The notes: a model not told the origin generated them from the sequence alone. 64,000 bases of DNA from an uncultured delta proteobacterium (GCA_963787125.1 CAWBBV010000006.1:128001-192000), one strand, 5' to 3'. Counted from the first letter of the stretch, positions 3,358 through 53,722 are shown. Numbers and translations are program-made.

Positions 3358-3374
3358 ATCCGATCCTCTATACA

Positions 3375-33227: not shown

Positions 33228-33728
33228 ATGAACAAAAATTTCGGAAAAATTCTTTCAATATTTGTAGCGCTTACCCTTTTGGCTCTACCGCTGGCAGCCT
33301 GGGCAGAACCGAAGGTCGCCATCTCCGTCAAGGCGGAAAAAGAGGTTACGGTTACGGTGAAAGGTAAAGCAGTTAAAAAGAAGATTGTGGCCAAAGGTTT
33401 TCTGCCTGGAGAAGAGATTATCTACACTCTGAGCTATGTCAATTCAGGAACTGAGCCGGCTAAAGATGTATTCATCACCGATCCGATACCGGCAGGCACC
33501 AGCTTCATCCCCGGCAGCGCCAGCGATGCAGACAAGGCGACTTTTTCGATCAACAACGGCAAAAGCTACAGTAAACCGACTCTGTTGACCTACGAGATCA
33601 AGTCTGCTGATGGAAAATTTCAGAAAAAAGTAGCAGCGCCTGAAGAGTATACCGACATCCGCTGGACGATCCCATCTGTCCCGGCAGGCGGGAAGGGTTC
33701 AGTCAATTTCAGGGTAAAAGTGAAGTAA
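33228..33728 (+). CDS. Single-domain secreted DUF11-like protein (putative chaperone)
   Basis: Signal peptide ending AWA, PGEEIIYTLSYVNSG, ITDPIPAG, ends GSVNFRVKVK. Confidence 0.85.
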   Translation: MNKNFGKILSIFVALTLLALPLAAWAEPKVAISVKAEKEVTVTVKGKAVKKKIVAKGFLPGEEIIYTLSYVNSGTEPAKDVFITDPIPAGTSFIPGSASDADKATFSINNGKSYSKPTLLTYEIKSADGKFQKKVAAPEEYTDIRWTIPSVPAGGKGSVNFRVKVK

Positions 33729-33777
33729 TCACCATTAAAAGAAACAGTACCGATGAAAGGAGACTCTTATGAACTGT

Positions 33778-33861
33778 AGAAGCAGAGCCAGACCGCCGAC
33801 GAATACTTCAGGCATCGGATCGACAACGGAGAAAAGAAGCAGGGCGCGACCACCGACGAAT
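33778..33861 (+). repeat. 27-bp direct repeat encoding RSRARPPTN twice
   Basis: 33778-33804 vs 33835-33861: four differences, all synonymous. Confidence 0.85.
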
Positions 33862-33942
33862 TTGCAGGAACGAGGATCACCGATGAACAGAAACCATGAA
33901 ACATACACAGACAGTACAAAGAAAATCACAAAGGAGAACGTC

Positions 33943-35436
33943 ATGAGAAGCACACAAAGCAGTTTTCTTCACAAGCAGCGAGCCCTGCTGGGCCTCCTGG
34001 CACTGGCAGCAACAGCTGTTGTCGGCATGCCGGTCAGCGCCTCAGCCAGCTCGACCGCAGGCACGACCATCATGAACCACGTCACCGTCAACTACAAGGA
34101 TGCCGGCGGGTTCAACACCTACAACGCCGACGCCACCACCATCGTCACCGTCAACCTGGTTATGGCGCCTCTCACCCTCAGCGCTGCACCAGTAGGCAAC
34201 GCAGCACCCGGAGCTCTTTCCTGCACATCCATCGCCACCAACTACGCATCCGGCAGCACGATCAATTTCCTCTATGCTATGAGAGCAAATGCCAACGGTG
34301 CTGACACCACCGGCGGCGGCACCAAGCTCTCCATGGCGAACACGCCGGCCAACACCAACAACGTCACGGTCAACTACTCAACCCTTGACTACACGGGGGG
34401 GAGCCCGGTTGCAAATCCGGCAACCCGGATTTTCGGCGCTGCCATTCCGACCGCCGTCCTCAGCGAAACACAACTGCAGTTCCCGGGCGGCGCCCTGTCA
34501 GGCTTTGCAGTCAATGACCTCGTTGCCGTGCCCACATCTGCCGGCGTAAGAGTCTACCTGGTAACCGCTGTCAGCGTCGGAGCAGCACCGGTATACAGCC
34601 ATACCGGCAATACCACCTATACCGACGTCGGCACTTTTGTAGGCGGCGCTAATCACGTCGAAACCAAGGGAACTCTGACCCTTGGCGCCTGGGCTACCCA
34701 GTCGATCACCCTGAACGGATCCGCCACAAGCTTCGGCGGCACCCCGGCTCCGACCCTTGCCACTGGCAACACGTTAACCCCCAATACCCCGATCGGCGAA
34801 ATGGTACTTGTCAAGGTTGACGTCTCAGCCAACAACAGCAACCTGCTCGCCGGAACCGTCGACTTCACCCTGACCACGACCGACAGCGCAAGCGGCAACC
34901 CCGCAACTGCTCCATGTACTGCCGGCACGTTCCAGGCGCCGACGCTCAGTATCAAGAAAGAGGCCAGCAACTTCACTGCAGCACCCGGTACTTTTGGTGC
35001 AACCGCAACCGGTAACCCCGGCCAGATCCTCGAATACCGCGTGACCGTCACCAATGCCGGTGGTCAGGCAAGCCTGGTAAATGTCTCCGATGCAGTGCCG
35101 TCATATACCTCCCTGGTTACCGGGTTAACGTACGGCACCGGCGCAGGGACGATCTTCGCAAAAGTAACTGACAATGCTGCACGAACCGTCGAACTGACCA
35201 CAACCGTCGATTCGGAAACACAGCCGGTCGGCAACAAGCTGTCCTACGGCGATGCTGCCGGGACAGCTGCACTCTCTGCGTTGAAATTCTGGATGGGAGA
35301 CACCGCAACCAACGCAGCAGGCGGTAAGCTCCCCTACTGCAGCTCCGGCGCTTTCACCACTTCAGCAACCTGCACCGGCGGTGGCGGAACCTGGATAACA
35401 ACCCTGACGATCCTCTACCAGGTAAAAATAGACTAA
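33943..35436 (+). CDS. Secreted DUF11-like fibre subunit 1 (alternative in-frame start at 33769)
   Basis: AAGGAG RBS, signal peptide ending ASA, N-terminal AGTTIMNHVTVNY, C-terminal LSIKK...PGQILEYRVTVTN...VSDAVP...ILYQVKID. Confidence 0.85.
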   Translation: MRSTQSSFLHKQRALLGLLALAATAVVGMPVSASASSTAGTTIMNHVTVNYKDAGGFNTYNADATTIVTVNLVMAPLTLSAAPVGNAAPGALSCTSIATNYASGSTINFLYAMRANANGADTTGGGTKLSMANTPANTNNVTVNYSTLDYTGGSPVANPATRIFGAAIPTAVLSETQLQFPGGALSGFAVNDLVAVPTSAGVRVYLVTAVSVGAAPVYSHTGNTTYTDVGTFVGGANHVETKGTLTLGAWATQSITLNGSATSFGGTPAPTLATGNTLTPNTPIGEMVLVKVDVSANNSNLLAGTVDFTLTTTDSASGNPATAPCTAGTFQAPTLSIKKEASNFTAAPGTFGATATGNPGQILEYRVTVTNAGGQASLVNVSDAVPSYTSLVTGLTYGTGAGTIFAKVTDNAARTVELTTTVDSETQPVGNKLSYGDAAGTAALSALKFWMGDTATNAAGGKLPYCSSGAFTTSATCTGGGGTWITTLTILYQVKID

Positions 35437-35449
35437 ACAGACCATCAGC

Positions 35450-35473
35450 CCCGCCCCTATAAAAAGGGGCGGG
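35450..35473 (+). other. GC-rich hairpin without a U tract between the two subunit genes
   Basis: CCCGCCCCT-ATAAAA-AGGGGCGGG, perfect 9-bp stem. Confidence 0.6.
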
Positions 35474-35492
35474 CAGCAAAAGGAGAAGACAG

Positions 35493-36770
35493 ATGAAAAA
35501 GTCGATGCAAATATTAATAACTGCGCTGTTCCTGTCGATTATGACACTTTCAGCGAGCACCGTTCTGGCGTATACAACTGCGTCCAACACCCAGATCATA
35601 AACACTGCAACGCTTAACTTTACCGGCGGCACGGCAACAGCCAGCGTCGTTGTAACTGTTGGCCTGATTCCGTCTGCGCCGGCACTCGCCATCACTAATG
35701 GCACTTCCGCCTATACTGCCGCCAACACTCCAGCCATTATTGACAGCCTCTCAATCACCTCCAGCGCCAACGGCCCGGCGCAATACACTGTCAGTGCTCT
35801 GGCAAGCGCAGTTGCCAACTCTAATCTGGCACTCAACTCAGCGATAACTGTTGCGCTGCCAAATCCGATCACCATCGGCGCAACCATCACTAATGCCAGC
35901 ACCACATGGGGAACCCTTAAAGTCCCTTCCGACGGCACTGCCGACTCAATAGTCAACAATATCCAGCTCAACTCCTGGATCACCTTTAACGTCGGCACCG
36001 GCAACATTACCAGACAGGTACTTTCTGTAACTGACCCTGGCACAACAGGGACTGCAACCATAACCTTTGTCACAGCCGGTGGAGATCCTGCCACAGTCCC
36101 GGCCGGTACGCCAATCTATGAGAAGGTTTTTGTAAATCTCACGGTTGTTCCCGGAACAGTCGCTACCCCCGGAACTCCGATCGACGTGACCGTAACTGCA
36201 ACAGTTGCAACACCAGGCGTAGCAGTCAGCCCAACGATTACAAATGGTGCACCCAACCATTGGACAACCCCCCCTGCCGGCGTAACAATCGACAAATATG
36301 TGCGTAACGCCACAACTGATGCGTCTACTTTTTTCATAGCACCAGGAGTAGCGCCGTCACCATACAGCACCACTATTAACGGGGCAACCCACAACTACTA
36401 CAGAAGTACTTCTACCTCCGGTGTCAGTGCCAAACCGGGTGAAGTTCTCGAATACCTCGTTGAAGCTACCAATACAAGCGGCCCACCATCTGCAGTCCCT
36501 GCCATGGATATTGCCGGCTGTTTCATCACCGACGCACTCCAGACAACCTATGTCACTCTTACCCTCGGCCAAATGTCCGGCGGCAAAGACCTCTGGTACA
36601 TTCCACCTGCTGGCGGAGTTGGCGCTAACTACAACATAGCCGATCTCGGCTCTTTTGTGTCGCCGACACTCTCCGTGAACGTTGGCAACGGCGCCGGGGC
36701 AGGAGCAGCTACAGGAACCATTCCGGCCGGAAAGAAAGTCTCGATTCTTTACCGTGTAACCGTGCTCTAA
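35493..36770 (+). CDS. Secreted DUF11-like fibre subunit 2
   Basis: Signal peptide ending VLA, N-terminal SNTQIINTATLNF, C-terminal TIDKY...PGEVLEY...ITDAL...ILYRVTVL. Confidence 0.85.
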   Translation: MKKSMQILITALFLSIMTLSASTVLAYTTASNTQIINTATLNFTGGTATASVVVTVGLIPSAPALAITNGTSAYTAANTPAIIDSLSITSSANGPAQYTVSALASAVANSNLALNSAITVALPNPITIGATITNASTTWGTLKVPSDGTADSIVNNIQLNSWITFNVGTGNITRQVLSVTDPGTTGTATITFVTAGGDPATVPAGTPIYEKVFVNLTVVPGTVATPGTPIDVTVTATVATPGVAVSPTITNGAPNHWTTPPAGVTIDKYVRNATTDASTFFIAPGVAPSPYSTTINGATHNYYRSTSTSGVSAKPGEVLEYLVEATNTSGPPSAVPAMDIAGCFITDALQTTYVTLTLGQMSGGKDLWYIPPAGGVGANYNIADLGSFVSPTLSVNVGNGAGAGAATGTIPAGKKVSILYRVTVL

Positions 36771-36804
36771 AAAGAGTTTTTTCAAGTAAAGGAAAGTCAA
36801 CAAC

Positions 36805-39800
36805 GTGCTTATAACCCGGACTCAAAATTTCTGTAGCAGGATCAGCGGCTCATTCGCCGCTGCCCTCCCCCGTATATCGGGTGGCAACGACGCAACTGCG
36901 CCTCGCCATGCTACAGAGGTTCGTCCGGTTCATTCGCACGGCAATAACACCATGAAGTGGCTCTGGACGGCGCTCTTCCTCATCTGCCTCGCGCCGTTCC
37001 AGGCCATTGGAGCAAGTAATAACACCCAGATCGTAAACAGAGCACAGCTCAATTCTGACGCCCCTGCAGCAATCGCAACCAATGTGGTAACGCTGCAGAC
37101 GGGCCGCACAGCCTCAACAGTAGAATTCCTCAAATATGCGCCCGGGGTTGCAGGCACCGTCAACACTCACGTCGGCAACAGCTATTACAAGGACTCTTCC
37201 GCTGCATTTACTCCGGTAAATAACCCGGTTGCGGTCGGTACAGGCACCCCCATAGACCTGTCAGCCCCTGTGCCACTTATGAAAACAACCATGTATCACG
37301 CCGGTGAACCGCTTTTTGTCAAGGTAACCGACCTGGATCAAAACCTGGATAGAACCGTCGCGGAGACCGTTCTGGTAACCCTCACAGACAAAACCACCGG
37401 AGACACCGAAGTTCTCAGAATCACTGAAACCGGCCCCGATACGGGCATCTTTATCGGCTACATCCAGACAGCATCTACCGCTGCTAACGGCGCCGGCAAC
37501 GGAGTGCTGACTGTTTCCGAGTCAAGTTCCATCGATGCTCATTATGTCGATACCGTTGACGGCACGGACAGCTCCGCTGACGCAGCGCTTGTAGACCCGT
37601 TCGGGATACTCTTTGACACCATGACCGGCAATCCGGTTGACGGCGCAACGATAGAACTTTTGAACGCCGACGGCACAGCTGCCACTGTTTATGGTGACAA
37701 CGGCCAACCAACCAACAGCTATCCGAACAAGGTAATATCCGGCAGCACGGCAAAAGACGCCGAAGGCAACACCTACACCTTCACTCCGGGTGGCTACAGA
37801 TTCCCCTACGTAAATCCGGGGAGCTACATCCTGAAGGTAACTCCGACCAATAACTACAGCTCCCCTTCAACAGCCACTACCCAGTCCATCCAGGTGCTGC
37901 CGGGCGCTCCTTATGTCATCCTTGAGCCGGGTTCACGGGGTGAAACCTTTACCGTACCTGCCGGCCCGGCCATACGGGTTGATATTCCGCAGGACCCAAA
38001 AATCGGCACTCTCTGGCTCACCAAAAGTCCCGGCAAAGGTATCATCTCCGCCGGAGAGCGCCTTAACTACGACCTTACTCTCGAAAACAACTCTGCCGTG
38101 GGAACAATTTTTTCTCCGGTGATTACCGATATACTTCCACCAGGCTTCCGCTATGAAAAGGGCTCTACCAGAATCAACGGCACCGCTGCCCCTGACCCAT
38201 CAATCTCGCCGGACGGCAGCAGCATGACTTTTGCTCTCGCCACTATCCCGCCAGCAACTACCATCACACTCCGCTATGTGGTTGGTATCGGCGCCGGCGC
38301 CAAAACCGGTACAGCAACAAACATCGCTTTTGTCAATGCCGCCGCGGCGGTGAAATCCAATATTGCCAAAGCTGCGGTTCTTGTCCAGGAACCGTTCATG
38401 CAGAGCCGCAACATTATTATGGGGCGGGTTTCAGTAGGCGTTTGCGGTGACAACGGTGATGACAACAAAAAAGGGATGGCAGACATCGGCATCTATCTTG
38501 AGGATGGTACTTTTGTCATGTCCGACAGGTTCGGCATGTTCCACTTTGAAGGGGTACAATCCGGCTCGCACGTTGTCCAGTTGGACCTGGACTCTATCCC
38601 TGAAGGGTACAAAATCCTGCCATGTGAGCAGAACAGCCGCTTCGCAGGTCGCGCTTACTCCCAATTCGTTGATCTGCAGGGTGGGACAATGTGGCGCACA
38701 GACTTCTATCTTGGCAAAGATCTGCTCACACAACCTACGGCAGTTGCGTCAACAGAAAAAAGCACAGCAGCAGGCAGGGGTGCTGAAGCGCAGCCTGCCA
38801 CTGAGGTTGCCACTCAGATTGCTTCTGTAGAGAAGAGCTCGGCAGCAGATTCAAAGCTGGCCGCAGCCAGCGTTAAAGGTTCTGACACTGCCACGCCGGT
38901 AAATTACAAAGGTGAGATTAGTCTGGAGATGATCAGCAGCCAGAGCGGAGACTTCATCGATTACCGTATTCCGCTACAGACAGCAACAGTGCCGTTAACC
39001 AATCTACGCCTCACGGTTACGCTGCCGGCGGGAGCCATTTATGTCAAAGGGAGCAGCAGTCTTGACAGCGCTGCACTCACCGACCCCACAGTCATTGCCG
39101 GCAGAATCCTCGCCTACCAGCTCGGCGCTACCGGCGCCGACTCGCAGCAAGAGCTCCGTTTCCGGGTAACTATCGACCGGAAAGCCAGGGGTGGCGAACT
39201 GCAGACAAAAGCCGGCCTTACTTTTGACAGCCCGGCGACCAAAGACATTACGGCGCCCGCTGTAGACAATCTTCTTTCTCTCGTTAAAGAAGAAGGCCGG
39301 CTGGCACTGCCGAAAATAGTTATCCGGCCTCAATTCCCGACCTTTGGCGCCGAATTGAGTGAGGAAGATCGCAAGCAGCTTGATGAGCTTGCCCAGATGC
39401 TCGCTCGCTTTAAAATTGACCACATTGACGTAGTCGGTCATACAGATATAGTCAGGATCGCACCACGCAGCCGTAACATTTACGCTGACAATACCGCCCT
39501 CTCCTTTGCCAGAGCAAAAAGCGTCGGCCGTTACCTGACCGCAGCTCTCCATCTTCCACCCGAAAGCCTCAACCTGAGCGGCAGCGGCGAAAGAGAGCCG
39601 ATTGCGACCAACAAAACCGCTGAAGGCCGGACCCTGAATCGGCGTGTAGAGGTTAATGTCTCGGCAGCGCAAACTATCGAAACTTCCAGACTCACGATTA
39701 CCAAGGAAAGAAGTGGGCTGAAAAAACAGGATACCACCGGCGTAACTATGAAGCAGACCGGTGAAGAGCTGAACAACCTCTCCCCGCTGCAGCCGAAATA

Positions 39801-43578: not shown

Positions 43579-43733
43579 GTCGTCGTGGGTAACAGCACAG
43601 GGGTACGGCTGGCAGGATTTCGCCACCAGTGCACTGCCGGAATGAGTAACCACCTGATTGTCAGTCGTTCATTTCAAAGGCTCACCATGCAACAAGGCAA
43701 TAAAAAAAAATATCTGCATCTCAGCTGACAGCT

Positions 43734-46700
43734 ATGGGCAGACTGTCTAACCGGGCAGCCGGGGCCATCAAACCAGCCCTGAAGTGTCTTGCGGGCATGG
43801 CCTTCACCGCTTTGTTGATCGTGATGATAACGAGCCTTCCGGCGCACGCGGTCCAGCGCAGCTTCCTCAACAACGGTTTCGAGTCGATCTGGGGACCATT
43901 GGTCGGCGCGAACACTAACTATTGCTGGGTATACGATGGTTCTGAGTACCCTTGGTTATCAAACGACAACTCAGCTGCTGGCACCGGCCCATGTAATGGT
44001 TACAACGGCGGCAGCTATGGCAGCGGAACCAACATTGTCGAAATCTGGTTCAACAATTTTAATGGGGTTCCAGCACGCGCGGGGAATGTCCACGCCGAGC
44101 TCAACGCCAACACCGCTTCCACCCTCCATCAGAATGTCTGTGTGCTGCAGAACGAGGATATAACCTGGCGGCTCAGCCATCGGGGAAGAGATGGCGTAGA
44201 TCAGATGCAATACTACATCGGCAACGCCGTGACCGGCATGGTGCTTGACGCATCCACCGGCAACACCGGCGCGACGACTATCAACGCCTGCCAGACCGGA
44301 ACTTCTGTAACTACCACCAGCGCCTGTACACAGTCCACAGTTAACACCTGGGGAGATTATGGCGGCGTCTTCAAGTGGTTGGGCCCTTCAGCTGTCACCT
44401 CTGTCAACTTCCAGGCGATCAGCACCAATGGGGGGGCCGGATCGCTCACCGTCGGCAACTTCCTCGACGAGGTCTATTTCTACCTCAAGCCCATCGTCGA
44501 GTTCTCTGCCAGCAACAGCAGCGGTCTGGAGTCGGTCGCGACGCCGGCTTCGCCCAAATTGCGCGTGGTCGGTGCGCTGACCTCCCCTCTCACCGTTTCC
44601 GTTTCGATCACCGGCGGCACGGCAGTGCGTGGAATCGATTATACCACCCCCAACGGATCAGCAGATTTCACGGTCACCATCCCGGTCGGCAATTACGTTG
44701 AAACCGATTCGTTCAACACCGGCATCCAGATCATCAATGACAAGATCGCCAATGGTGACAGAACCATCATCATGAAGGTCAACGCCGATTCCGCCTACAT
44801 CATCAGTTCTTCTGCGACCTGCGGCGGGGCAGTCAATAACCCGGCCACCTACACCATCCTCGACGACGACGCTAACATCCGGCTTATCAAGACCACCATC
44901 GGCGGCACCGGCACCTTCACGTACACCCTCACCAACGTCGACACCAATCTGGTCACCGCCGGCAACCAGACTGCCGCCAGCATCACTACAACCGTAGCGG
45001 GAACGCCGGTAGAGTTCGACGCCGACAGCGGCACGGCCGGGATCCAGCCGATCTTGGTGGCTGCCGTCGGTACGAGAGTGGACATCACTGAAACGATCCC
45101 TGGTGGGTGGTCCTTGTCCGGCAGCTGTTCAGTGACCGGCGGCACCAACCCGACCGCCGCGCCTATCGCCATCAACTCCACAACAGGCTTTGTGAGGATA
45201 CCGTCCGCAAATTTGACAGCGGGCTCGACTGCGACCTGCTTTTTCAATAACACCAATAGTCTAAGCCTGACCAAGGGCTTCAGCACCGGCACCATAGGTG
45301 TCGGCCAAACCGCCAGGTTGACCTACACTATTACTAATCCGGCAGGGGGGACAGCCAAAACCGGCCTCAGCTTTACCGACTCATTCCAGTCAAACCTCGT
45401 TGTTGCGGCAACGCCGAACGTTGTGAACAACTGCGGCGGCACGACGCCAACAGCTACTGGAGGTAACACATCGTTCGCAGTTACCAGCGTCAACGCCGCG
45501 GCCGGCACTTCCACCTGCACCATCTCCGTGGATGTGACCAGCACTATTGCCGGCAGTTACGTAAACGGCTATGGGCAGGTTTCGACGACTGCCCCTCTGG
45601 TTAACGGCGTTACCGCCCAGACGCTGAACGTCGTCCAAGCCGGCCTGACAAAATCCTTCAACCCCACCACCATCGACCCGGGCGGCACCAGTACGCTGAC
45701 CTTCACCCTGGCCAACGGCAGCGGTAACCCGGCCCAATCCGGCATTAACTTCAAAGACACCCTGCCTGCCAATGTCGCGGTGGCGGGAACGCCGGCAATC
45801 ACATCCACCTGTTTATCAGGAACAGGCGTTGTGACGACCACTGCCGGCCCTCCCGGCACCATCACCGTTACCGGCGCGTCCATGAGTAACGACATGGCCA
45901 CCTGCACGATCACAGTCAACGTAACAAGCAACGTGCCGGGCGGCCCTTACAGTAACACCAGCGGCAGTATCTCCGGACTGGCAAGGTTGACCAACAATGT
46001 CACCCAGAGCGACCTGTACGTCCGGGGCGTTAACCTGACCAAATCCTTCAATACCGGGACCATCGCCGTCGGCCAGACCGCCAGACTGACCTTCGCCATC
46101 CAGAATCCGGCAGGGTCCGCGGCAAAAACCGGCCTCAGCTTCACCGACTTGTTCCCAACCGGCCTCGTCATTGCTGCGACGCCGAATGTGGTCAATACCT
46201 GCGGCGGGACGACACCATCGGCTAGCGGCGGAGCCACATCGTTTGTCGTTAACAGTGTCAACTCCGCAGTGGGCCCCTCAACCTGCACCATCGCCGTAAA
46301 CGTGACCAGCAGCAGTGCCAGCAACGGCTATGTCAACGGCGCCGGCCAGCTGACGGTCACTGCACCGCTGTTGAACGGCGTTACCGACCAGACACTGAAG
46401 GTGCTCGCCCCGCCGACCATCGCCAAGGCCTTCGGCGCAGCCAGCATCAGCCTGAACGGGACAACCTCACTTAACCTCACCGTGACCAACCTCAACACCG
46501 GCACCGCCATCAGCGGCATTGCCTTCACCGACACCCTGCCGCCCGGCCTCACTGCCGCTAATGGCACCACGGCGGCCTGCAACGGCGGTTCGCTGGTTAT
46601 TTCGGGCAGTAACCTGCTGACTTTCACTGGCGGCACTCTGGCAGCCGGCGCCAACTGCGTCATCTCCGCCACCGTAACCGGCACCTCCACCGGTGCCAAG

Positions 46701-47840
46701 AACAACACCACCGGAGCAGTTTCTGCCAGCGGGCCGATTACCCTCAACGGTCTAGTCTCCAACACTGCCACGGTAACTGTCCGGCCGATTCCGACGGTAC
46801 AGATACAGAAAACCTCCACCAACGGCACCGGCGCTTTTGGCTATACCATGACAAACCTGGCAGCTGCTACCGCAACTATTACCACAGTAACTGCCGGCAC
46901 TGCAGTGAACGGCACAGCCAACAATGTGACGTTGACGACGAGCAATGTCACCATCACCGAGGGGACCGTCCCGTCAGGCTGGCCCGCCAATCCGGTCTCT
47001 GCGTCCTGTTCCGATTCCAACAGTGCGGTCACCGGTAACCCTGCTTCTTTCGGCTCACTGGCAGGAAACGTACTCACGATCCTTTCGGCCAATCTTCTGC
47101 CAGGGGGGGTGATCACCTGTTCGTTCGTGAACACGGCAACCGCCACCATCACCGTCAACAAAACGCTCTCCCCTTCATCAAGCGGCGGCACCTTTAATCT
47201 ACTTGTCGGGGCCGCCACGGTTGCCTCAGCAGTCGGCAACGGCGGCAGCGGCGTTGCAACAGTGCCGGTTGGCGTGACAGTGTCTGTCAGTGAAACTGCT
47301 GCCGGCACAACCAATCTGGCTGATTACGATTCATCCTATAGCTGTACCGGAGGGGTTACCGGTTCGGGAACCAGTGTCAACATTACACCGACCATTGGCC
47401 TGGCAGTTACCTGCACTTTCACCAACACTCTCAGGATGCCGCTCCTCTCCATACTCAAATCTGCCAACAGAGCAACCGTTAACCCCGGACAAGTCATCGT
47501 CTATACCGTGCAGGTCGTCAATTCCGGCGCCGGAGTGGGCACCAATGTCGTCCTGACTGATGACCTCAGTCCTTACTCATCGTTTGGCCTGAACAGTTAC
47601 GGAGCTGGCGTCCGTTTCGCCTTTACCGACAGCACTCCGACACCATCAGGACTCTCGCTCGGCACGCCGGAGTATTCCTACACCAATGGTTCAAGCTGGT
47701 TCACAGCGCCTCTCACTGATCAAGGCGGCGGTGCTCCAAGCGGCTATGACGGCCTCGTCACCAACTGGAGAATCCCAATGACCGGCACCATCAGGGCAGG
47801 TGGCAGCTTTATTCTCAATTACCAGGTGATTGTGAAGTAG
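43734..47840 (+). CDS. Large secreted adhesin 1 (Cys-containing N-domain, Calx-beta-like domain, CnaB-like and DUF11-like repeats, terminal truncated DUF11)
   Basis: Signal peptide ending AHA; YTILDDD; four (L/I)xKxF repeats; three K..E..TC.F.N domains; ends NYQVIVK. Confidence 0.85.
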   Translation: MGRLSNRAAGAIKPALKCLAGMAFTALLIVMITSLPAHAVQRSFLNNGFESIWGPLVGANTNYCWVYDGSEYPWLSNDNSAAGTGPCNGYNGGSYGSGTNIVEIWFNNFNGVPARAGNVHAELNANTASTLHQNVCVLQNEDITWRLSHRGRDGVDQMQYYIGNAVTGMVLDASTGNTGATTINACQTGTSVTTTSACTQSTVNTWGDYGGVFKWLGPSAVTSVNFQAISTNGGAGSLTVGNFLDEVYFYLKPIVEFSASNSSGLESVATPASPKLRVVGALTSPLTVSVSITGGTAVRGIDYTTPNGSADFTVTIPVGNYVETDSFNTGIQIINDKIANGDRTIIMKVNADSAYIISSSATCGGAVNNPATYTILDDDANIRLIKTTIGGTGTFTYTLTNVDTNLVTAGNQTAASITTTVAGTPVEFDADSGTAGIQPILVAAVGTRVDITETIPGGWSLSGSCSVTGGTNPTAAPIAINSTTGFVRIPSANLTAGSTATCFFNNTNSLSLTKGFSTGTIGVGQTARLTYTITNPAGGTAKTGLSFTDSFQSNLVVAATPNVVNNCGGTTPTATGGNTSFAVTSVNAAAGTSTCTISVDVTSTIAGSYVNGYGQVSTTAPLVNGVTAQTLNVVQAGLTKSFNPTTIDPGGTSTLTFTLANGSGNPAQSGINFKDTLPANVAVAGTPAITSTCLSGTGVVTTTAGPPGTITVTGASMSNDMATCTITVNVTSNVPGGPYSNTSGSISGLARLTNNVTQSDLYVRGVNLTKSFNTGTIAVGQTARLTFAIQNPAGSAAKTGLSFTDLFPTGLVIAATPNVVNTCGGTTPSASGGATSFVVNSVNSAVGPSTCTIAVNVTSSSASNGYVNGAGQLTVTAPLLNGVTDQTLKVLAPPTIAKAFGAASISLNGTTSLNLTVTNLNTGTAISGIAFTDTLPPGLTAANGTTAACNGGSLVISGSNLLTFTGGTLAAGANCVISATVTGTSTGAKNNTTGAVSASGPITLNGLVSNTATVTVRPIPTVQIQKTSTNGTGAFGYTMTNLAAATATITTVTAGTAVNGTANNVTLTTSNVTITEGTVPSGWPANPVSASCSDSNSAVTGNPASFGSLAGNVLTILSANLLPGGVITCSFVNTATATITVNKTLSPSSSGGTFNLLVGAATVASAVGNGGSGVATVPVGVTVSVSETAAGTTNLADYDSSYSCTGGVTGSGTSVNITPTIGLAVTCTFTNTLRMPLLSILKSANRATVNPGQVIVYTVQVVNSGAGVGTNVVLTDDLSPYSSFGLNSYGAGVRFAFTDSTPTPSGLSLGTPEYSYTNGSSWFTAPLTDQGGGAPSGYDGLVTNWRIPMTGTIRAGGSFILNYQVIVK
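47487..47836 (+). repeat. 3' segment of adhesin 1 shared with adhesin 2 (copy 1)
   Basis: 47487-47542 is identical to 53378-53433 (56 nt); 47778-47836 matches 53660-53718 at 58/59. Confidence 0.9.
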
Positions 47841-48022
47841 GCACGTAGCCAACTTAGTTAAACTCTGGATATATTATCCCGGTGATAAATGACTCTAATT
47901 GAGATGGTACCCACTACAGGCTGCTAATCCCGGTCAACCGGGAAATTTTTGATATATTTGCATAGAAGAATTTTTGCGGAGATGCTCAGATTGTAATCGC
48001 AATGATTTGCGGAGAAACAGCA

Positions 48023-51000
48023 ATGCTAAATATTTCAAAATCACTTCTTACCATTCCCTCCCCGGCGAAATTTTATTGCCGTCGTTTTCTGCTGCTATTC
48101 TATCAACTATTACTCGCTTATCTGATCCTCCCGCTCTTCAGTATTTGCGTGGCTCACGCCGCTGTCATCAACGAACCGATGACCAATGCCACTGCGCCAT
48201 CCTGGGTTATCGGCGGTTCAGCCTTCCTGACCGCCAGCTCCGGTCTTGACCCGAACGGCAACGGCTGGCTGCGGCTGACAGATCTCAACACGAATCAGGC
48301 CGGCTTCGCTTATCTTGACTCCGGTTTCAGCATCTCCTCCGGCGCAGTGATTTCTTTTGATTACACGTCATGGGGGGGGGCTGGTGACGGCGGATTCGGC
48401 TGCGGCAACACCGGTGCCGATGGCTACAGCGTGTTCCTGTTTGACGGCTCGCAAAGTTTTTCGGTCGGCGCCACGGGCGGATCACTCGGCTATGCGCAAA
48501 AGACAGTTGCACCGGTCAATACAGGCCTTGCCTATGGCTATATCGGTATCGGCGTTGACGAGTGGGGTAACTTCGCCAACCAGACAGAAGGGCGGATCGG
48601 CGGTGTGGGGGGTATTTGTAACGGCGTAGCAGTGCGCGGCCCCTACAACCATCCATCCGGCAAATACAACTATCTTGGCGGCAACGCCAGTGGAGCCGTG
48701 CTCGCCTATCCAGGACTGGCCTTCCGCCCCCAGCAGGATGGCGGCCAGTACCGCAAAGTTCTCATCTATCTCACCCCCCAGGCAGCGCCCAACTACCTGA
48801 AAGTAGACGTCTACCTGCAATCAGGCTACAGTAGCTTCCCGGTTCAGGTAGTCAATGGACTCATGGTCGCCCAGCCCATTCCGGCAACGGTCAAGATCGG
48901 CTATGCCGCCAGCACCGGCGGGTCGAACAACTATCATGAGATTCGTAATCTGATCATCGATCCGCTCCCCACTTCCGATATCGACCTGACAATGGCAAAA
49001 ACCGTTTCCTCTTCTACGGTGACGCAAGGGGGGGCGATCTCGTATGGCCTTATCGTGCGCAATACCGGCCCGCTTAATGTTACCGCCACCAACGTGCCGA
49101 TCACCGACACAATTCCTGCAGCCATAACCGGGGTCACCTGGACCTGCGCCGGCTCAGGCGGCGCAACCTGCGGTGCGGCGTCAGGCAGCGGCAACAGCAT
49201 CAACACCACAACAACACTCCCCCTGAACGGCTACGCGACCTACACCATCAGCGGTACCGTCAGCGCGGCAACCCCGCTCGGCACGGTTATCAACAATACT
49301 GCCACCCTGACCCCGCCGGCAGGGATCACCGATCTGAACGCCGGCAACAACAGCGACACAGCAACCACGACTGTTACCAGCGGCACTGTTGCCCTGTCAG
49401 GAAACATCTTCATTGACAACGGCGCTGGCGGCGGCACCGCCTACGATGGCATCAAAAACGGCACTGAAGCCAATGTTACTGCCACGACCATCGGCAATAC
49501 CTACTATGTCAAGGTCTACCGGTCCAGCGACCTCACCACGCAGGTCGGGATTGCGACAGTGGCGGGCGGTGCAAGCACCTATTCCATCAACGTTCCTGCT
49601 TACGGCACGTATACGGTCATTCTCAGTTCAGACAATACGACTAACTTTACCCCCTCCTTACCAAACGTTCAGTATATCTATACTTTGCCCCTGAACTTCA
49701 CCCTGACGAATGTAGTAACAAGCGGCGCCGCCCTGCCCAATCAGAACTTCGGTGTATTTCGTGGCAGCCGCATCAGCGGCAAGGTCATCCGTGACACCGG
49801 CTTGAACGGCAGCATTGCCAATGCCAACGATGGCATACTCAACGCCGCCGAGACCGGCATTTCCGGCGTTACCGTTACCTTGCGCAACAATACCGGCGGA
49901 ACTACTTATGATACCGAAATTACCGATGCTAATGGTAATTTTACCCTTTATACCAATCTTGCCACCACTCCCCTGCGCATTTATGAAGCAAACCCGGTCG
50001 GCTACACGTCGGTGAACGCAAATATCGGTACCACCGGCGGCACCTACACCATCGGCACCGATTTCATCGACTTTCCCGGCTACACCCGGTATACCGATTA
50101 CAGCGGCATCATTTTCAGTGATGTTCCTAACAACACCTTCCTTCCGACACCGCAAAGCGCCGGCGGATCGTCACAAGCCCCGGTATACTTCCCCCATACC
50201 TTCACCCCTGGCAGCGGCGGCAGCGTCACTTTCGCCACCACCGGGCGAACCCAGACGACCTGGCCGGCGATAGTCTACTATCGCGACACAAACTGCAGCG
50301 GTACCTATAACCCGGGCGAACCGGTCATCAGCGGGGCAATTACCGCCTCGGCCAACACCCCGATCTGCATCCTGGTAATGGATACTGTTCCCGGTGGCAC
50401 CACCCCCCCCGCAACCGACACCATTACCACGACGGCAACCTTCACTTTCACCAACTCTGTCGGCCCGGTAACTTCAACGCATGCGGTTATTGACACCCTG
50501 AACGTCTATACACCGCCGACCCTCACCAAGACCTTTGGAGCGTCGAGCATCCTTGCCGGGGGCAACACGACCCTGACCTTGACTCTAACCAATCCGGCCG
50601 CCAATCCTGCCGCTATCACCACCGTCAGCATGGATGACACCTTCCCCGCCGGGCTGACCCTGCAGAACAATACAATCACCTTCACCCCGGCTTTCTGCGG
50701 TACGGTCACCAGGATCTCCGGCGCTGCTTCGGCAGCCGGCGACAACAATGTCCGCTTTACCGCCGGATCCATAGCTTCAGCAGCCACCTGCCGGGCGGTA
50801 ATGAATGTTACCAGTTCGACCGCCGGCAGTATCACCAACACCACCACAGCGCCGACAGCGGCCGGACCGGCAACAACCACCGGCACTGCGGCTTCGGCGG
50901 TGCTGATCATCTATGCCAAACCGACGGTCAGCAAAGCTTTCGGCTCTTCCACCATTTCCAGCGGCGACAGCACCACCATGACCCTGACACTCACAAACCC

Positions 51001-53722
51001 GAATGCTCTGCCGCTGAGTGGCGTCGCCATCGCCGACACCTATCCGACCAACCTGCGCAACCTCAACACAACCACCGGCGGAACCTGCACCGGCACCAAG
51101 ACCGCGTCCGCCACCGCCACCAATCCCGGCACCCTTACCCTGACCGGCGGCAGTCTCGCCGCCAATGCCAACTGTACCATCACCGTCACCGTAACGTCGT
51201 CAGTCGTCGGCGCCTACACCAACACAACCGGCGCCCTCACCTCAACCGAGACTCCGACTGCCGACAACACCGCAACTGCCCCCATGACTGTAGCGGCTAC
51301 CGGACTGGCGCTTACCAAAACTTTCAGCCAGTCTCAGGTGCAGGCAGGTCCCGCAGCAGCCGGTCTCGACATGATCTTCACCATCACGAACATATCGCTT
51401 ACCACTGCGGCGCAACAGATCGTCTTCAGCACACCTGACACCATGCCGACTGCTGGCGGCTCACAGATGACGCTTAATACCATCCCCAACGCCTGCACAA
51501 TCACTGCTGCCAGCCCGGTCGGTTCCTGCGGTTTCAACGGCGTTACTGCCCTGGGCACCGCCGTTCCGAATACGCAGGCAAATACTGCGCTGCAATTTGC
51601 TACTACCGGCACCGGCCTGAGCCTGGCCCTTAACTCGTCCTGCACCATCACCTGCCCGGTAACCATTGCAGCCGCCACCACCGGCGGCACCTACACTAAC
51701 AGTGCACCAGTGCTTGCCTCCGTCGGCGTTCCGGGTGTTACCGGTAGTTCGGCGTCGGTTGTCGCCCTGAAGCCGCCAACCATCACCAAAGCGTTCTCAC
51801 CCGACACGATCGGTACCGGCCTGACTTCAACCATCACCTTCACGCTTGGCAACACTGCTGCCAGCACCGTTGCCTACAGCAGTTCCACCTTCACCGACAC
51901 ACTCACCAACATGAGTATCTCCGGAAATCAGACAGCAGGGGGCACTTGCGGCGGCGTTGCCGGTAACAGCTTTACCAGCGGCCAGACCGGACTGCTCACC
52001 CTGACCGGGCTGACGATTCCTGCCGGCGGCAGTTGCACGGTGACGCTGCTGGTCACCAGTTCAACTGTCGGCGCCAATGCCAACACCACCAGCGGCATTA
52101 CCACCACCCAGACACCTGCGGCCGGAGCAGGCGCGACCCCGGTTAACCTGACTGTTGTCGGTACCGACCTGACCAAGGTGTTTTCACCGGCTACAGTCAG
52201 AACAGGGCAGAAATCCACGGCAACTTTCACCATTACCAACGGCGCCAGCGCGCCGGCCCAGTCCGGCTTCGCTTTTACAGAAACTTTCCAGTCCAACCTG
52301 GTTCTGGCCACCCCTGCCAACCTCTCCACCACCTGCGCAAGCGGCGCAGTCAGCGGCACTTCCGGCACCAGAATCCTTACTTTCAGCAGCGGTAGCATGA
52401 CACTCGGACAGACGAGCTGTACGGTTACAGCAGACATCGTCAGTTCGGTTGCCGGCAACTACTCGAACCCGACTGGCAACATAACCGGAAAATCAACCGG
52501 CATGACCTACAGCAGTAACCCGTCACTGGCTGTATTCAACAACCCGGTACTGACCAAAGCCTTCGCCACCAACCCGATCGGTGTCGGCCGGGTATCAACT
52601 CTTACTTTTTCAATCGCCAACCCGGCAGGAGCCCCGGCCAGCAGCGGCCTGACCTTTACTGACACCTTTCCGGGCGGGCTGGTGATCGCCGCAACACCGA
52701 ATGTGGTTAACAACTGCGGCGGTACTCCCACCATTACCGCCACTGCCGCCAGCGGCGTTTTCACCATCGGCGGCAGCGGCGTTGTCACAACGGTTGGTCC
52801 GTCAACCTGTACTATTTCGGTTGACGTCACCAGCAACAGTGTCGGAAGCTACACCAATGGTGCAGGCCAGATTACCCCTATCTCCGGAACCCTGTCGAAC
52901 GGCGTCACCAATCAGACCCTTTCCGTGGTAGGCACAAAACTGACCAAGGCGTTCGGACTCGCAAGCGTCGGTGTCGGCGGCTCCAGCACGCTCACCTTCA
53001 CCATTACCAATGATGCTACCCACCCGGCGCAGTCTAACTTGACTTTTACCGACACCCTGACTATCGGTGCAGGCCTTTCCATTACCGGTGTCACTCCCCT
53101 GTCAGGAGCCAACTGTTCTGCCACAATGCCGACATTCAACACCACCAGTAACCCTTCAGTGACCCTGACCGGGGCTACGATGGCTGCAGGAGCAACAACC
53201 TGTACCTTTACTGCTACGGTCAGAGGCAATACTTCCGGCACATACAGTAACAATAACAGTAACTTCAGTGCTACTTCTCCGGCAGTTGATACCTCCGGTG
53301 TAAATGCCACACTGACTGTTTATGATCTACCGTTGATCTCCATTTTAAAGTCAGCCAATGTTGCAACCGTTAATCCAGGACAAGTCATCGTCTATACCGT
53401 GCAGGTCGTCAATTCCGGCGCCGGAGTGGGCACAAGTGTACTTCTTACCGATGACATGAGCCCCTACGGAGCACTTAGAATCAACAGCGGGGCGCCATTT
53501 ACCTTTACAGATACCAGCACCCCTACCCTATCAGGACTTACACTCGGCACCCCTGAGTATATCCACAATTACAGCGGCACTTGGGTTACAACGCTTACTG
53601 ACGGCGGCGGCAACGCTCCGGCAGGTTATGACGGCACTGTCACCAACTGGCGGATTCCGATGACCGGCACCATCAGGGCAGGTGGCAGCTTTACTCTCAA
53701 TTACCAGGTGATTGTGAAATAG
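48023..53722 (+). CDS. Large secreted adhesin 2 (L-type lectin-like N-domain, DUF11, SdrD-B-like domains, seven DUF11-like repeats, terminal truncated DUF11)
   Basis: GGAG RBS; signal peptide ending AHA; WLRLT, GADGYSV, GVDEWGN and GYAASTGGSNNYHEI lectin motifs; ends NYQVIVK. Confidence 0.87.
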   Translation: MLNISKSLLTIPSPAKFYCRRFLLLFYQLLLAYLILPLFSICVAHAAVINEPMTNATAPSWVIGGSAFLTASSGLDPNGNGWLRLTDLNTNQAGFAYLDSGFSISSGAVISFDYTSWGGAGDGGFGCGNTGADGYSVFLFDGSQSFSVGATGGSLGYAQKTVAPVNTGLAYGYIGIGVDEWGNFANQTEGRIGGVGGICNGVAVRGPYNHPSGKYNYLGGNASGAVLAYPGLAFRPQQDGGQYRKVLIYLTPQAAPNYLKVDVYLQSGYSSFPVQVVNGLMVAQPIPATVKIGYAASTGGSNNYHEIRNLIIDPLPTSDIDLTMAKTVSSSTVTQGGAISYGLIVRNTGPLNVTATNVPITDTIPAAITGVTWTCAGSGGATCGAASGSGNSINTTTTLPLNGYATYTISGTVSAATPLGTVINNTATLTPPAGITDLNAGNNSDTATTTVTSGTVALSGNIFIDNGAGGGTAYDGIKNGTEANVTATTIGNTYYVKVYRSSDLTTQVGIATVAGGASTYSINVPAYGTYTVILSSDNTTNFTPSLPNVQYIYTLPLNFTLTNVVTSGAALPNQNFGVFRGSRISGKVIRDTGLNGSIANANDGILNAAETGISGVTVTLRNNTGGTTYDTEITDANGNFTLYTNLATTPLRIYEANPVGYTSVNANIGTTGGTYTIGTDFIDFPGYTRYTDYSGIIFSDVPNNTFLPTPQSAGGSSQAPVYFPHTFTPGSGGSVTFATTGRTQTTWPAIVYYRDTNCSGTYNPGEPVISGAITASANTPICILVMDTVPGGTTPPATDTITTTATFTFTNSVGPVTSTHAVIDTLNVYTPPTLTKTFGASSILAGGNTTLTLTLTNPAANPAAITTVSMDDTFPAGLTLQNNTITFTPAFCGTVTRISGAASAAGDNNVRFTAGSIASAATCRAVMNVTSSTAGSITNTTTAPTAAGPATTTGTAASAVLIIYAKPTVSKAFGSSTISSGDSTTMTLTLTNPNALPLSGVAIADTYPTNLRNLNTTTGGTCTGTKTASATATNPGTLTLTGGSLAANANCTITVTVTSSVVGAYTNTTGALTSTETPTADNTATAPMTVAATGLALTKTFSQSQVQAGPAAAGLDMIFTITNISLTTAAQQIVFSTPDTMPTAGGSQMTLNTIPNACTITAASPVGSCGFNGVTALGTAVPNTQANTALQFATTGTGLSLALNSSCTITCPVTIAAATTGGTYTNSAPVLASVGVPGVTGSSASVVALKPPTITKAFSPDTIGTGLTSTITFTLGNTAASTVAYSSSTFTDTLTNMSISGNQTAGGTCGGVAGNSFTSGQTGLLTLTGLTIPAGGSCTVTLLVTSSTVGANANTTSGITTTQTPAAGAGATPVNLTVVGTDLTKVFSPATVRTGQKSTATFTITNGASAPAQSGFAFTETFQSNLVLATPANLSTTCASGAVSGTSGTRILTFSSGSMTLGQTSCTVTADIVSSVAGNYSNPTGNITGKSTGMTYSSNPSLAVFNNPVLTKAFATNPIGVGRVSTLTFSIANPAGAPASSGLTFTDTFPGGLVIAATPNVVNNCGGTPTITATAASGVFTIGGSGVVTTVGPSTCTISVDVTSNSVGSYTNGAGQITPISGTLSNGVTNQTLSVVGTKLTKAFGLASVGVGGSSTLTFTITNDATHPAQSNLTFTDTLTIGAGLSITGVTPLSGANCSATMPTFNTTSNPSVTLTGATMAAGATTCTFTATVRGNTSGTYSNNNSNFSATSPAVDTSGVNATLTVYDLPLISILKSANVATVNPGQVIVYTVQVVNSGAGVGTSVLLTDDMSPYGALRINSGAPFTFTDTSTPTLSGLTLGTPEYIHNYSGTWVTTLTDGGGNAPAGYDGTVTNWRIPMTGTIRAGGSFTLNYQVIVK
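53378..53718 (+). repeat. 3' segment of adhesin 2 shared with adhesin 1 (copy 2)
   Basis: Blocks of 56/56 and 58/59 identity with 47487-47542 and 47778-47836. Confidence 0.9.

Follow-up and report, generated by a model that had tools for sequence, protein, structure and literature searches.

What is assembled from the products of the operon at 33228..53722 of this window (the whole stretch of 64,000 nucleotides analysed, GCA_963787125.1 CAWBBV010000006.1:128001-192000)? Its six secreted proteins (P1 to P4 and adhesins 1 and 2), from a Geobacter-like bacterium, look made for head-to-tail joining onto a giant outer-membrane barrel protein. The products are likely to be components of a surface fibre whose subunits are joined through a split CLIPPER (DUF11) domain, the joints probably being locked covalently. 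The split-DUF11 donor-strand reading of the original prediction is supported as a whole, and each of its testable parts held.

The coordinates that had been claimed for codons, starts and C-termini were compared with the sequence, and every one checks out (Table 1). The starts at 33943, 35493, 36952, 43734 and 48023 are ATG codons, each followed by a signal-peptide-like stretch as judged by eye. Five proteins (P1, P2, P3 and the two adhesins) had been said to lack the end of a DUF11 domain, and they do: each stops once strand seven of this DUF11/CLIPPER domain is complete, with the C-termini VNFRVKVK, ILYQVKID, ILYRVTVL and, twice, NYQVIVK preceding the stop codon; these ends are beta-strands and carry no sorting tail. 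The missing piece is indeed the mature N-terminus of P2, P3 and P4, as had been proposed. It is a two-strand hairpin instead of the single donated strand originally envisaged, and it occupies roughly the first 30 mature residues, directly after the signal peptide. The Asn codons of the three hairpins (34075, 35601 and 37036) are all AAC and lie within AGTTIMNHVTVNY, SNTQIINTATLNF and NNTQIVNRAQLNS. First-strand Lys is specified at the four expected codons (34957, 36294, 47457 and 53348; AAA or AAG), within LSIKKEA, TIDKYVR and SILKSAN (two copies), and P1 additionally keeps a first-strand Lys and Asp. Given its conservation across the family (below), this split-domain pattern is far beyond chance.

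Table 1. Features of the operon and of the region directly upstream (window positions)
Feature	Position	Strand	Remarks
Sensor histidine kinase	28332-30572	+	Pfam HisKA_7TM, PAS, HATPase_c; directly upstream of operon
Sigma-54-dependent response regulator	30569-31870	+	Pfam Response_reg, Sigma54_activat; directly upstream of operon
Candidate -24/-12 (sigma-54 type) promoter	32705..32720	+	one mismatch to the consensus used as pattern
P1	33228..33728	+	166 aa, secreted; single truncated CLIPPER/DUF11 domain; acceptor only, no donor hairpin
P2	33943..35436	+	secreted; donor hairpin and truncated CLIPPER end domain (donor and acceptor)
P2 donor hairpin	about 34048-34150	+	Asn codon 34075
P2 end domain			Lys codon 34957; ends ILYQVKID, stop; TIGR01451 in P2 25.5 bits (cut-off 24)
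P3	35493..36770	+	secreted; donor and acceptor
P3 donor hairpin	35571-35672	+	Asn37, codon 35601
P3 middle beta-sandwich			about mature residues 33-235
P3 truncated CLIPPER end domain	36270-36767	+	Lys268 (codon 36294), Glu320, Asp347
P4	36952..43578	+	open frame from 36805; donor only
P4 donor hairpin	about 37015-37110	+	Asn codon 37036
P4 Ig-like stalk domains	after hairpin		include a complete CLIPPER (by eye and TIGR01451)
P4 OmpA-like peptidoglycan-binding domain	39346-39642	+	residues 848-946; further Ig-like domains follow
P4 C-terminal outer-membrane beta-barrel	about 41134-43527	+	confident strands from about 41839
Adhesin 1	43734..47840	+	1368 aa; acceptor only; 4 DUF7933, SpaA_4, SpaA_3
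Adhesin 1 truncated CLIPPER end domain	47445-47837	+	Lys codon 47457
Adhesin 2	48023..53722	+	open frame from 48002; acceptor only; SdrD_B, 6 DUF7933
Adhesin 2 complete CLIPPER	48983-49366	+	Pfam DUF11 79.2 bits, profile positions 1-113
Adhesin 2 truncated CLIPPER end domain	53351-53719	+	Lys codon 53348

Among the domain families, TIGR01451 scores above its cut-off in P1 (52.1 bits), P2, P4 (two stretches) and both adhesins, and DUF11 (PF01345) is found in P1 (35.4 bits, cut-off 24.6; profile positions 4-75 of 114), adhesin 1 (35.0 bits, positions 2-51 of 114) and adhesin 2. The 40-residue donor hairpins are unrecognised by Pfam. P3 lacks any Pfam match; nonetheless the end-domain profile of its family matches complete tandem CLIPPER repeats (hhalign probability 98.4, E-value 5e-15), and this match stops at column 120 of 142. 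The hairpin profile matches columns 123-140 of these repeats, directly after the end-domain match, and is weak when taken alone (E-value 0.002, probability 13). The end domains of adhesin 1 (E-value 8.8e-11) and adhesin 2 (E-value 1.9e-8) match the P3 end-domain profile up to their final residues. None of the terminal domains is a complete nine-strand sandwich within one chain; complete copies lie inside adhesin 2 and P4. Among 189 collected proteins of at least 600 aa, nine natural fusions were found in which one chain carries a P3-type end domain and, 5-8 residues after it, a P4-type hairpin. Comparison at the sequence level thus supports the truncated end domains and the N-terminal hairpins as the two halves of one CLIPPER domain.

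The arrangement is conserved. A search with the P3 profile collected 1232 cluster representatives at E<=1e-3, 289 of them at E<=1e-30, and 150 members were aligned, with 19% mean column identity; all 150 end 5-7 residues past the conserved aromatic residue of the last strand. The operon is kept in four genomes of the same genus, and the truncated-domain and donor ends recur there and in 27 further loci, from Geobacteraceae to Alcanivoracaceae. Twenty-three of these loci were evaluable, the contigs of the other four ending too early, and in all 23 the order P1, P2, P3, giant barrel gene is retained, with the P4 gene directly downstream; 26 of the 27 loci have a P1-like gene. The predicted polarity likewise recurs in the homologous operons, the adhesins and P1 being acceptor only, P2 and P3 both donor and acceptor, and the barrel protein donor only. 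From their position, the histidine kinase and the response regulator are possible regulators of the operon. The promoter match at 32705..32720 is not significant by itself, since four one-mismatch sites occur in the window with 3.15 expected by chance; a pattern search with the consensus gave no exact match in the window.

The joining of subunits was modelled with two mature copies of P3, the single chain of which is predicted with a pLDDT of 86 (AlphaFold2). The pair gave ipSAE values of 0.58, 0.51 and 0.50, and all three controls gave 0.00; the score is the model's own confidence and may also reflect simple completion of a known fold, and high scores can, according to the fold tool, be obtained with a close relative of the true partner as well. 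When the tool was calibrated, 20 of 30 proteins with structures solved as pairs attained the mark, as did 1 of 23 solved as single chains; these counts apply roughly because our own alignment was used. In the predicted complex (mature numbering) residues 2-33 of copy 2 lie against the end domain (236-399) of copy 1, non-reciprocally; Lys242 is in contact with residues 12 and 24 of the donor, whose residues 12-15 meet the stretch 319-322 around Asp321. At least 89% of contacts were common to all runs, and the partner pLDDT was at least 87. The expected insertion into the partner's end domain was thus obtained; as to the accompanying expectation, that Lys and Asn be brought together, the distance between them was not seen, Asn11 not being among the 25 best-defined contact pairs. 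These models support strand exchange between P3 copies. In the natural fusions the partner of the P3 end domain is a P4-type hairpin and not P3's own, so that the evidence for self-polymerisation of P3 is the fold.

This bears on an alternative in which the proteins form a covalently stitched adhesin stalk of fixed length, with one copy each of an adhesin (or P1), P2, P3 and P4 and no repeating shaft. The split-domain joining would be unchanged, each hairpin would fit a single acceptor, and the parts would follow gene order. The fixed order of P1, P2, P3 and P4 in the examined loci would then mirror the order in the chain; the three hairpin types are unlike in sequence, the fusions show the P3 end domain pairing with a P4-type hairpin, and two P2-like genes occur in some of the 27 loci, as expected of extra modules. 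Against this stand the passing of controls by the two-copy P3 fold (0.51 against 0.00), the example of chaperone-usher pili, in which the groove of the major subunit takes the terminator's extension as well as its own, and the lack of an obvious gain from a split into four genes unless some part repeats. We regard such a stalk as unlikely.

The covalent part of the fibre reading draws on the chemistry of the domain. The Lys-Asn isopeptide bond of DUF11 and its catalytic Asp were demonstrated in 2025 (PMC12617251), which upholds the earlier statement that DUF11 is an isopeptide domain using an acid residue. The crystal structure 9IFR contains a K715-N806 bond with D748 nearby (PMC12617251, section 2.4), and the K715A variant is described there as less stable and the CLIPPER fold as nine strands with the bonded Asn preceding the last. 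By order and spacing the donor Asn, acceptor Lys and acceptor Asp of the operon map to N806, K715 and D748. In the P3 family the acceptor Lys is found in 148/150 members, the Asp in 147/150 (Glu in two more) and the donor Asn in 144/150; the three residues, among them the Lys and Asn on whose conservation the original prediction had staked itself, are thus kept in 96-99% of P3 relatives. A further Glu-Tyr pair is also conserved (Glu 139/150, Tyr 149/150). Both Lys and Asp are present in 30/30 P2-like end domains and in 15/15 end domains of adhesins. Of 92 aligned P4 homologues, 84 retain the donor Asn, three have Asp there and five Ser or Thr. The triad is less strict in the P1 family (Lys 22/27; Asp 20/27, Asn in the other seven). 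These conserved residues suggest that an intermolecular Lys-Asn lock is probably formed.

Improbable, in our estimation, is a donor-strand fibre or chain of non-covalent type, in which Lys, Asp and Asn would be structural leftovers of the CLIPPER fold with no interchain bond. Chaperone-usher pili show that high stability needs no covalent links, and the seven Asn-bearing P1 proteins would fit such a scheme, as would the absence of the bond-forming residues from some DUF11 domains that is mentioned in PMC12617251. The retention of the three residues at the above frequencies in P3 relatives, despite 19% mean column identity, and in the end domains of P2 and the adhesins speaks against it, as does their correspondence to the bonded positions of a solved CLIPPER domain. 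It is scarcely credible that these are separate surface or periplasmic proteins, each hairpin closing the end domain of its own chain and the gene order reflecting common function only: single-chain models do often fold a donor strand into its own groove, and a self-closed form is described in the Tafi paper, but P1 and the adhesins have an open end domain without a hairpin and P4 a hairpin without an open domain, so that completion inside one chain is impossible for them, and the two-copy P3 fold chose interchain, non-reciprocal insertion.

Computation here has shown that the domain is split, that the split is conserved and that fused forms occur, and has given a supported head-to-tail model of P3. 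For the fibre as a whole the following scheme is proposed. The subunits would leave the cytoplasm via Sec signal peptides. P1, P2, P3 and the adhesins would expose an open, seven-stranded CLIPPER end holding the first-strand Lys and the catalytic Asp, and P2, P3 and P4 would begin with the eighth and ninth strands as a hairpin bearing the Asn. By donor-strand complementation this hairpin would enter the end domain left open in the subunit before it. In the rebuilt domain Lys and Asn would probably react, unaided save by the Asp, so that an isopeptide bond would link the two chains in the manner of a natural tag-and-catcher pair. The result would be a polar chain with an adhesin or P1, a candidate minimal tip or cap, at the far end, P2 and P3 between, and P4 at the base; repetition of P3 (or P2) may generate a long shaft. 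P4 would terminate and anchor the chain, fixing it to the cell through its barrel and its OmpA-like domain, and the fibre may pass through or beside the barrel. No export route or chaperone is evident for the operon.

The OmpA-like domain of P4 (PF00691; 52.8 bits, cut-off 27.2) is predicted to bind peptidoglycan. An AlphaFold2 model of the last 918 residues (pLDDT 69) contains about 32 consecutive strands by our own count of the strand list, and its fold matches are large outer-membrane barrels; the similarity to FimD (Z 11.3, rmsd 5.6, 307 residues aligned, rank 28) is that to other large barrels. The order of domains in P4 is awkward and speaks against the model: the peptidoglycan-binding domain follows the presumed outer stalk and precedes the barrel, so that the chain would have to cross the outer membrane in between.

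As had been stated, no sortase, usher, type IV pilin or curli family was detected among the 40 ORFs of the window to which the Pfam scan was applied. Neither PapD_N nor Usher (PapC/FimD) was matched in these ORFs, the only genomic copy of each lying on another contig (C14); the Sortase family gave no match in the whole genome (99.96% complete). All families that Pfam and NCBIfam recognise in the subunits are of DUF11 type or related Ig-like ones, with no sign of a TasA-like fold, and the operon contains no signal peptidase gene of the SipW or another type. Chaperone-usher pili (Fim, Pap) have an acceptor-only tip adhesin, a terminator at the base and an association with an outer-membrane barrel. 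[quoted passage not shown] It differs in fold, in lacking two strands instead of one, in the reactive Asn borne by the missing piece, in the absence of an usher and a PapD-like chaperone from the operon and its vicinity, and in a base protein itself fused to a barrel and an OmpA-like domain. SpyTag/SpyCatcher is an engineered split CnaB2 in which a peptide with a reactive residue completes a truncated domain and bonds spontaneously; it differs in being man-made, with a CnaB fold, a Lys-Asp pair and a single ligation instead of a polar chain.

Of the known systems, BsaA and the archaeal threads come closest. In BsaA of Clostridium perfringens (TasA family), an N-terminal strand inserts into the sheet of the next subunit, as proposed here. 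The exchanged strand is then locked by an isopeptide bond between Lys and Asn with an acidic residue close by, a lock that in the operon is predicted; variants in the Lys, Asn or acid residues lost oligomers of these 'exchange and lock' fibres (bioRxiv 10.1101/2024.11.04.621531). As described in the preprint, BsaA is TasA-like and not CLIPPER/CnaA-like, donates one strand and not a two-strand hairpin, comes from a Gram-positive bacterium, with a SipW peptidase and secretion linked to type IV pili, and lacks the outer-membrane barrel protein and the polarised tip, shaft and base set of the operon. The Sulfolobus acidocaldarius thread (Saci_0406) is likewise built head to tail by donor-strand complementation; its subunits are apparently linked covalently, and the product of a gene next to that of the thread is proposed as a cap without acceptor site (PMC9715654). 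The bond runs from the N-terminal amino group of Asp24 to Asn57 two subunits further on, and the thread, as described in that article, is archaeal and, unlike the operon, has no Lys-Asn-Asp triad, CLIPPER domain or outer membrane. The intramolecular CLIPPER adhesins (9IFR) belong to the same family, with Lys, Asp and Asn at the same positions, and the adhesin of PMC12617251 also has an OmpA-like anchoring domain, like P4; its bond is within one chain, whereas the domain of the operon is divided between two proteins. In the text of PMC12617251 that was searched, 'split' and 'truncated' do not occur, and the five occurrences of 'intermolecular' all concern other systems.

Consistent with the original remark that no characterised pathway was recognised, no description of the operon system was found in the literature searched. 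We tentatively suggest, as a possibility somewhat short of likely, that it represents a new and widespread class of surface fibre in two-membrane bacteria that needs no chaperone, usher, sortase or ATPase. If so, subunits would polymerise because each bears the reactive hairpin that ends the isopeptide domain of its neighbour, self-ligating as a natural tag-and-catcher chain; one giant protein would combine an outer-membrane conduit (a barrel of at least 30 strands), the terminating hairpin and the peptidoglycan anchor; and export would be driven by folding and bond formation. The P4 gene is fragmented in two of the loci (L018 and L026). The N-terminal domain of adhesin 2, judged by eye, is lectin-like.

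The operon comprises six genes in a single orientation, encoding proteins P1 to P4 and two adhesins, and the N-termini of all six products resemble Sec signal peptides by eye. When read against the window sequence, every codon and C-terminus named in the original prediction proved correct as stated. Pfam and NCBIfam detected DUF11/TIGR01451 in five of the six proteins; the adhesins also carry DUF7933, SpaA_3 and SpaA_4, with SdrD_B slightly under the cut-off, and an OmpA-like domain lies in the middle of P4.

Coordinates of the operon genes and of other features discussed in the text
Feature	Sequence	Coordinates	Remarks
Operon	window	33228-53722	
P1	window	33228-33728	166 aa
P2	window	33943-35436	
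P3	window	35493-36770	
P4	window	36952-43578	about 2200 aa
Adhesin 1	window	43734-47840	
Adhesin 2	window	48023-53722	
Conserved stretch of P4	window	41134-41800	P4 residues about 1444-1566
Cysteine-rich ORF	window	32724-32933 (+)	69 aa
Copy of cysteine-rich ORF	genome G003, locus L011	18688-18861	
Polysaccharide genes	window	2155-5996 (-)	
Chaperone and usher pair	contig C14	3865-6604	outside the window
P3-module-P4 fusion	locus L017	11174-18847	
P4-type gene in several frames	locus L018	14581-17972	metagenome-assembled genome
P4-type gene in several frames	locus L026	12379-17027	metagenome-assembled genome
Second system	contig C11, locus L039	7882-20000	outside the window

In a 2025 survey, which gave DUF11 the new name 'CLIPPER', one solved domain is reported (9IFR; PMC12617251) with nine strands, a Lys715-Asn806 bond, an adjacent Asp748 and the Asn preceding the last strand; the substitution K715A destabilises this domain, and DUF7933, SpaA_3, SpaA_4 and SdrD_B are also counted as isopeptide families. 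The DUF11 isopeptide bond on which the original prediction relied is thereby published. In the operon the acceptor is a C-terminal CLIPPER end domain with Lys and Asp and the donor is an N-terminal hairpin with Asn; P1 and the adhesins are acceptors only, P2 and P3 are both, and P4 is a donor only. A 5697-residue protein contains complete CLIPPER repeats in tandem; the P3 end-domain profile matched these (probability 98.4, E-value 5e-15) and stopped at column 120, while the hairpin profile, in a match weak on its own (E-value 0.002, probability 13), fell on columns 123-140 directly beyond it. The donated piece therefore corresponds to the final pair of strands, in keeping with the nine strands of the crystal structure; the DUF11 domain is split as had been proposed, and the part supplied is not the single strand envisaged. 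The three 40-residue hairpins matched no Pfam family at E-values up to 10. Sequence searches against solved structures gave chance-level matches only for the complete CLIPPER domain of adhesin 2 and none for the P3 family profile, and 9IFR was consequently missed by this route.

Sequence search returned 29 relatives of P3, of which none bears a functional name (seven are 'hypothetical protein', the others nameless) and none contains a Pfam domain. Against 1.84 billion cluster representatives the P3 profile matched 1232 at E<=1e-3 and 289 at E<=1e-30, nearly all of them about 400 residues long with the alignment reaching the final residues; the protein atlas labels the clusters merely 'hypothetical' or 'DUF11 domain-containing'. 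The single P3 protein as a locus query gave 92 pattern matches and no relative. Across an alignment of 150 family members, with a mean column identity of 19%, 144 proteins retain the Asn of the donor, 148 the Lys of the acceptor and 147 the Asp (two more have Glu), and a Glu-Tyr pair is kept in 139 and 149, respectively. Ala occupies the position preceding the mature N-terminus in 141 of the 150, and every one of the proteins ends 5-7 residues past the conserved aromatic residue of the last strand.

Evidence that needs no structure predictor comes from natural fusions. In nine of the 189 collected proteins of at least 600 residues, the chain that contains a P3-type end domain continues after 5-8 residues with an Asn-bearing hairpin of P4 type and then runs on into the remainder of P4. 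The domain is whole in these organisms, whereas in the window a stop codon, intergenic sequence and a further signal peptide break up the same junction. At the sequence level these fusions show the P4 hairpin to be the part missing from the P3 end domain, and computation based on them shows that the two pair. Smithella-like and some other organisms have one to three entire P3-type modules fused ahead of P4 (L017 and proteins P0290, P0292, P0296, P0297 and P0036), giving complete tandem CLIPPER domains where the window uses separate genes.

Four other genomes of the genus contain the identical gene set, order and protein ends. Scanning a single genome for each species, with alignment A1 as seed, yielded 27 loci from Geobacteraceae, Desulfuromonadales, Smithella/Syntrophaceae, Pseudomonadales, Alcanivoracaceae, Spongiibacteraceae and others; the records of Geomonas silvestris and Geomonas limicola (L014 and L015) are among those containing the operon. 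Of the 27 loci, 26 have a P1-like gene, the remaining contig beginning too late. All 23 loci that could be evaluated carry a P4-type barrel gene immediately 3' of the P3-like genes, four contigs stopping earlier. Both Lys and Asp of the acceptor were found in all 30 P2-like proteins and all 15 adhesin end domains; the P2 set carries no Asn count, since its selection pattern demanded that residue. P1 is less strict, with Lys in 22/27 and Asp in 20/27, Asn standing instead in seven. The N-terminus of P4 was alignable in 92 of 105 homologues of at least 1850 residues, and here the donor position is occupied by Asn (84), Asp (3), Ser (3) or Thr (2). The donor/acceptor pattern, for which the original prediction had proposed a check in homologous operons, is conserved there. 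Computation shows a CLIPPER domain divided between consecutive proteins; this division is conserved, as are the reactive residues and the set of genes. A role for P1 as a chaperone-like cap for the hairpins was set aside as the less likely reading, Lys and Asp being kept in most P1 proteins. The broken P4-type frames at L018 and L026 reflect either faulty assembly or a decaying system.

The model of mature P3 (pLDDT 86, pTM 0.70) begins with a hairpin, continues with a sandwich and closes with the end domain, and fold searches with it returned only generic Ig-like, Gram-positive pilin or AgI/II-type proteins (Foldseek TM<=0.28, VIA Z<=9.1). Two copies of mature P3, folded with a 150-row alignment, were placed head to tail with ipSAE values of 0.58, 0.51 and 0.50, versus 0.00 in each of three controls. 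When the tool was calibrated, 20 of 30 proteins with structures solved as pairs attained this mark, against 1 of 23 solved alone; these counts apply only roughly to the P3 pair, for which we supplied an alignment of our own. Contact overlap between the runs was at least 89%, and partner pLDDT at least 87. As had been anticipated for such a co-fold, the N-terminal residues of one chain enter the end domain of the other: the modelled interface is one-way, with residues 2-33 and a few middle-domain residues against 236-399 of the partner, Lys242 contacting donor residues 12 and 24 and the Asp321-region strand contacting 12-15. P3 can, by computation, be modelled head to tail with P3, and the model may in part reflect completion of a known fold.

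We consider it likely that the operon specifies a split-CLIPPER, probably covalent surface fibre. Strand complementation between chains, taken alone, is highly probable, and the covalent lock is reasonably so. Hairpin insertion would be followed by spontaneous Lys-Asn bonding, in chains running from an adhesin or P1 at the far end through P2 and P3 to P4 at the base, where P4 would terminate the chain and anchor it to outer membrane and peptidoglycan. More speculatively, growth might occur at the open acceptor end with passage through the wide P4 barrel, and folding and bonding might drive export through it. A fixed stalk stitched from four parts would agree with a gene order that is fixed, with hairpins of distinct types and with fusions that join P3 to P4, not P3 to P3; the P3 models support strand insertion between P3 chains in an open-ended geometry compatible with a polymer, and we regard such a stalk as unlikely. 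Complementation that is solely non-covalent appears decidedly improbable. Closed monomers are contradicted by the existence of acceptor-only and donor-only proteins and by the one-way P3-P3 interface, and merit very little credence.

The proposed base, P4, is arranged as hairpin, Ig-like stalk, OmpA-like domain, further Ig-like domains and giant barrel. Its last 918 residues gave a moderate model (pLDDT 69) with about 32 consecutive strands by our own count from the strand list. Fold searches with this end matched only large outer-membrane barrels, among them MtrB (Z 15.9), TonB-dependent receptors (about 14), FimD (11.3), LptD and SlpA, with no stand-out and FimD indistinct from the rest. One stretch of P4 has many invariant residues across 37 homologues and an AlphaFold2 pLDDT of 21-27; a small beta domain (model residues 239-330) lies between it and the confident barrel strands, and the two might be the initial strands of the barrel and an insert resembling a plug. 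P4-like proteins, mostly labelled 'OmpA family protein', number more than 2186 at E<=1e-5 among roughly 8000 candidates tested. Judged from the names of its nearest homologues, the organism belongs to the Geobacteraceae.

Closest in working principle are BsaA of Clostridium perfringens ('exchange and lock'; bioRxiv 10.1101/2024.11.04.621531) and the archaeal thread (Saci_0406; PMC9715654), and chaperone-usher pili have a like layout of tip, shaft, terminator and barrel. The operon system falls outside all three classes because it has another fold and lacks chaperone, usher, sortase and SipW. As the original prediction stated, no sortase, PapC usher, type IV pilin or curli protein was found by Pfam among the 40 window ORFs scanned, nor was a PapD-like chaperone; the whole genome has no sortase. 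Its only PapD-like chaperone and usher pair, on contig C14, presumably forms part of a separate, conventional chaperone-usher pilus cluster and is unlikely to serve this operon, since P4 is the partner retained across taxa.

The domains belong to the CLIPPER family, whose defining paper, in its accessible text, makes no mention of a divided form (PMC12617251); a term search of it gave no occurrence of 'split' or 'truncated', and its five mentions of 'intermolecular' concern other systems. Full-text search of main texts, with few subscription journals among them, turned up no account of a CLIPPER fibre that is split or intermolecular. Two candidate papers were discarded: the Tafi paper mentions DUF1102, not DUF11, and is unrelated, and the Syntrophobacterium paper deals with methanogen DUF11 proteins. 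The system would belong with donor-strand fibres that carry an isopeptide lock, although its route of assembly has a substantial chance of being categorically new. If correct, the proposal would add another way of pilus building in Gram-negative bacteria, ranging over iron-reducing Geobacteraceae, syntrophs and marine oil degraders (289 subunit-family clusters at E<=1e-30, over 2000 relatives of the barrel protein), and the first natural CnaA-type isopeptide domain divided between proteins. It would also offer ready orthogonal self-ligating peptide/domain pairs for protein engineering, a testable function for many 'OmpA family' giants and 'hypothetical' 400-residue proteins, and an unstudied adhesive fibre with a possible role in attaching Geobacter-like organisms to minerals, electrodes or partner cells.

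By Pfam, the operon is preceded by a sensor kinase and a sigma-54 activator and followed by a TonB-dependent receptor and a YfiR-like/kinase pair. The exact sigma-54 consensus is absent from the window, and one-mismatch sites occur at chance frequency. Between the activator and P1 lies the cysteine-rich ORF, which matches no Pfam family and sits a short way downstream of a -24/-12-like site; a 55%-identical copy is located upstream of a P1-like gene in another genome, G003. About 27 kb upstream there is a surface polysaccharide locus with no evident link to the operon; it encodes a chain-length determinant of Wzz type and a Wza-like protein for polysaccharide export, flanked by sugar-nucleotide enzymes. 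Elsewhere in the genome under study, contig C11 carries a second, divergent system encoding, in order, a 169-aa P1-like protein, a 958-aa protein with a hairpin-like N-terminal start and strand-like end, a 2010-aa barrel protein with 31% identity to the P4 barrel and a hairpin-like start, and a separate 377-aa protein whose C-terminus is, by eye, OmpA-like.
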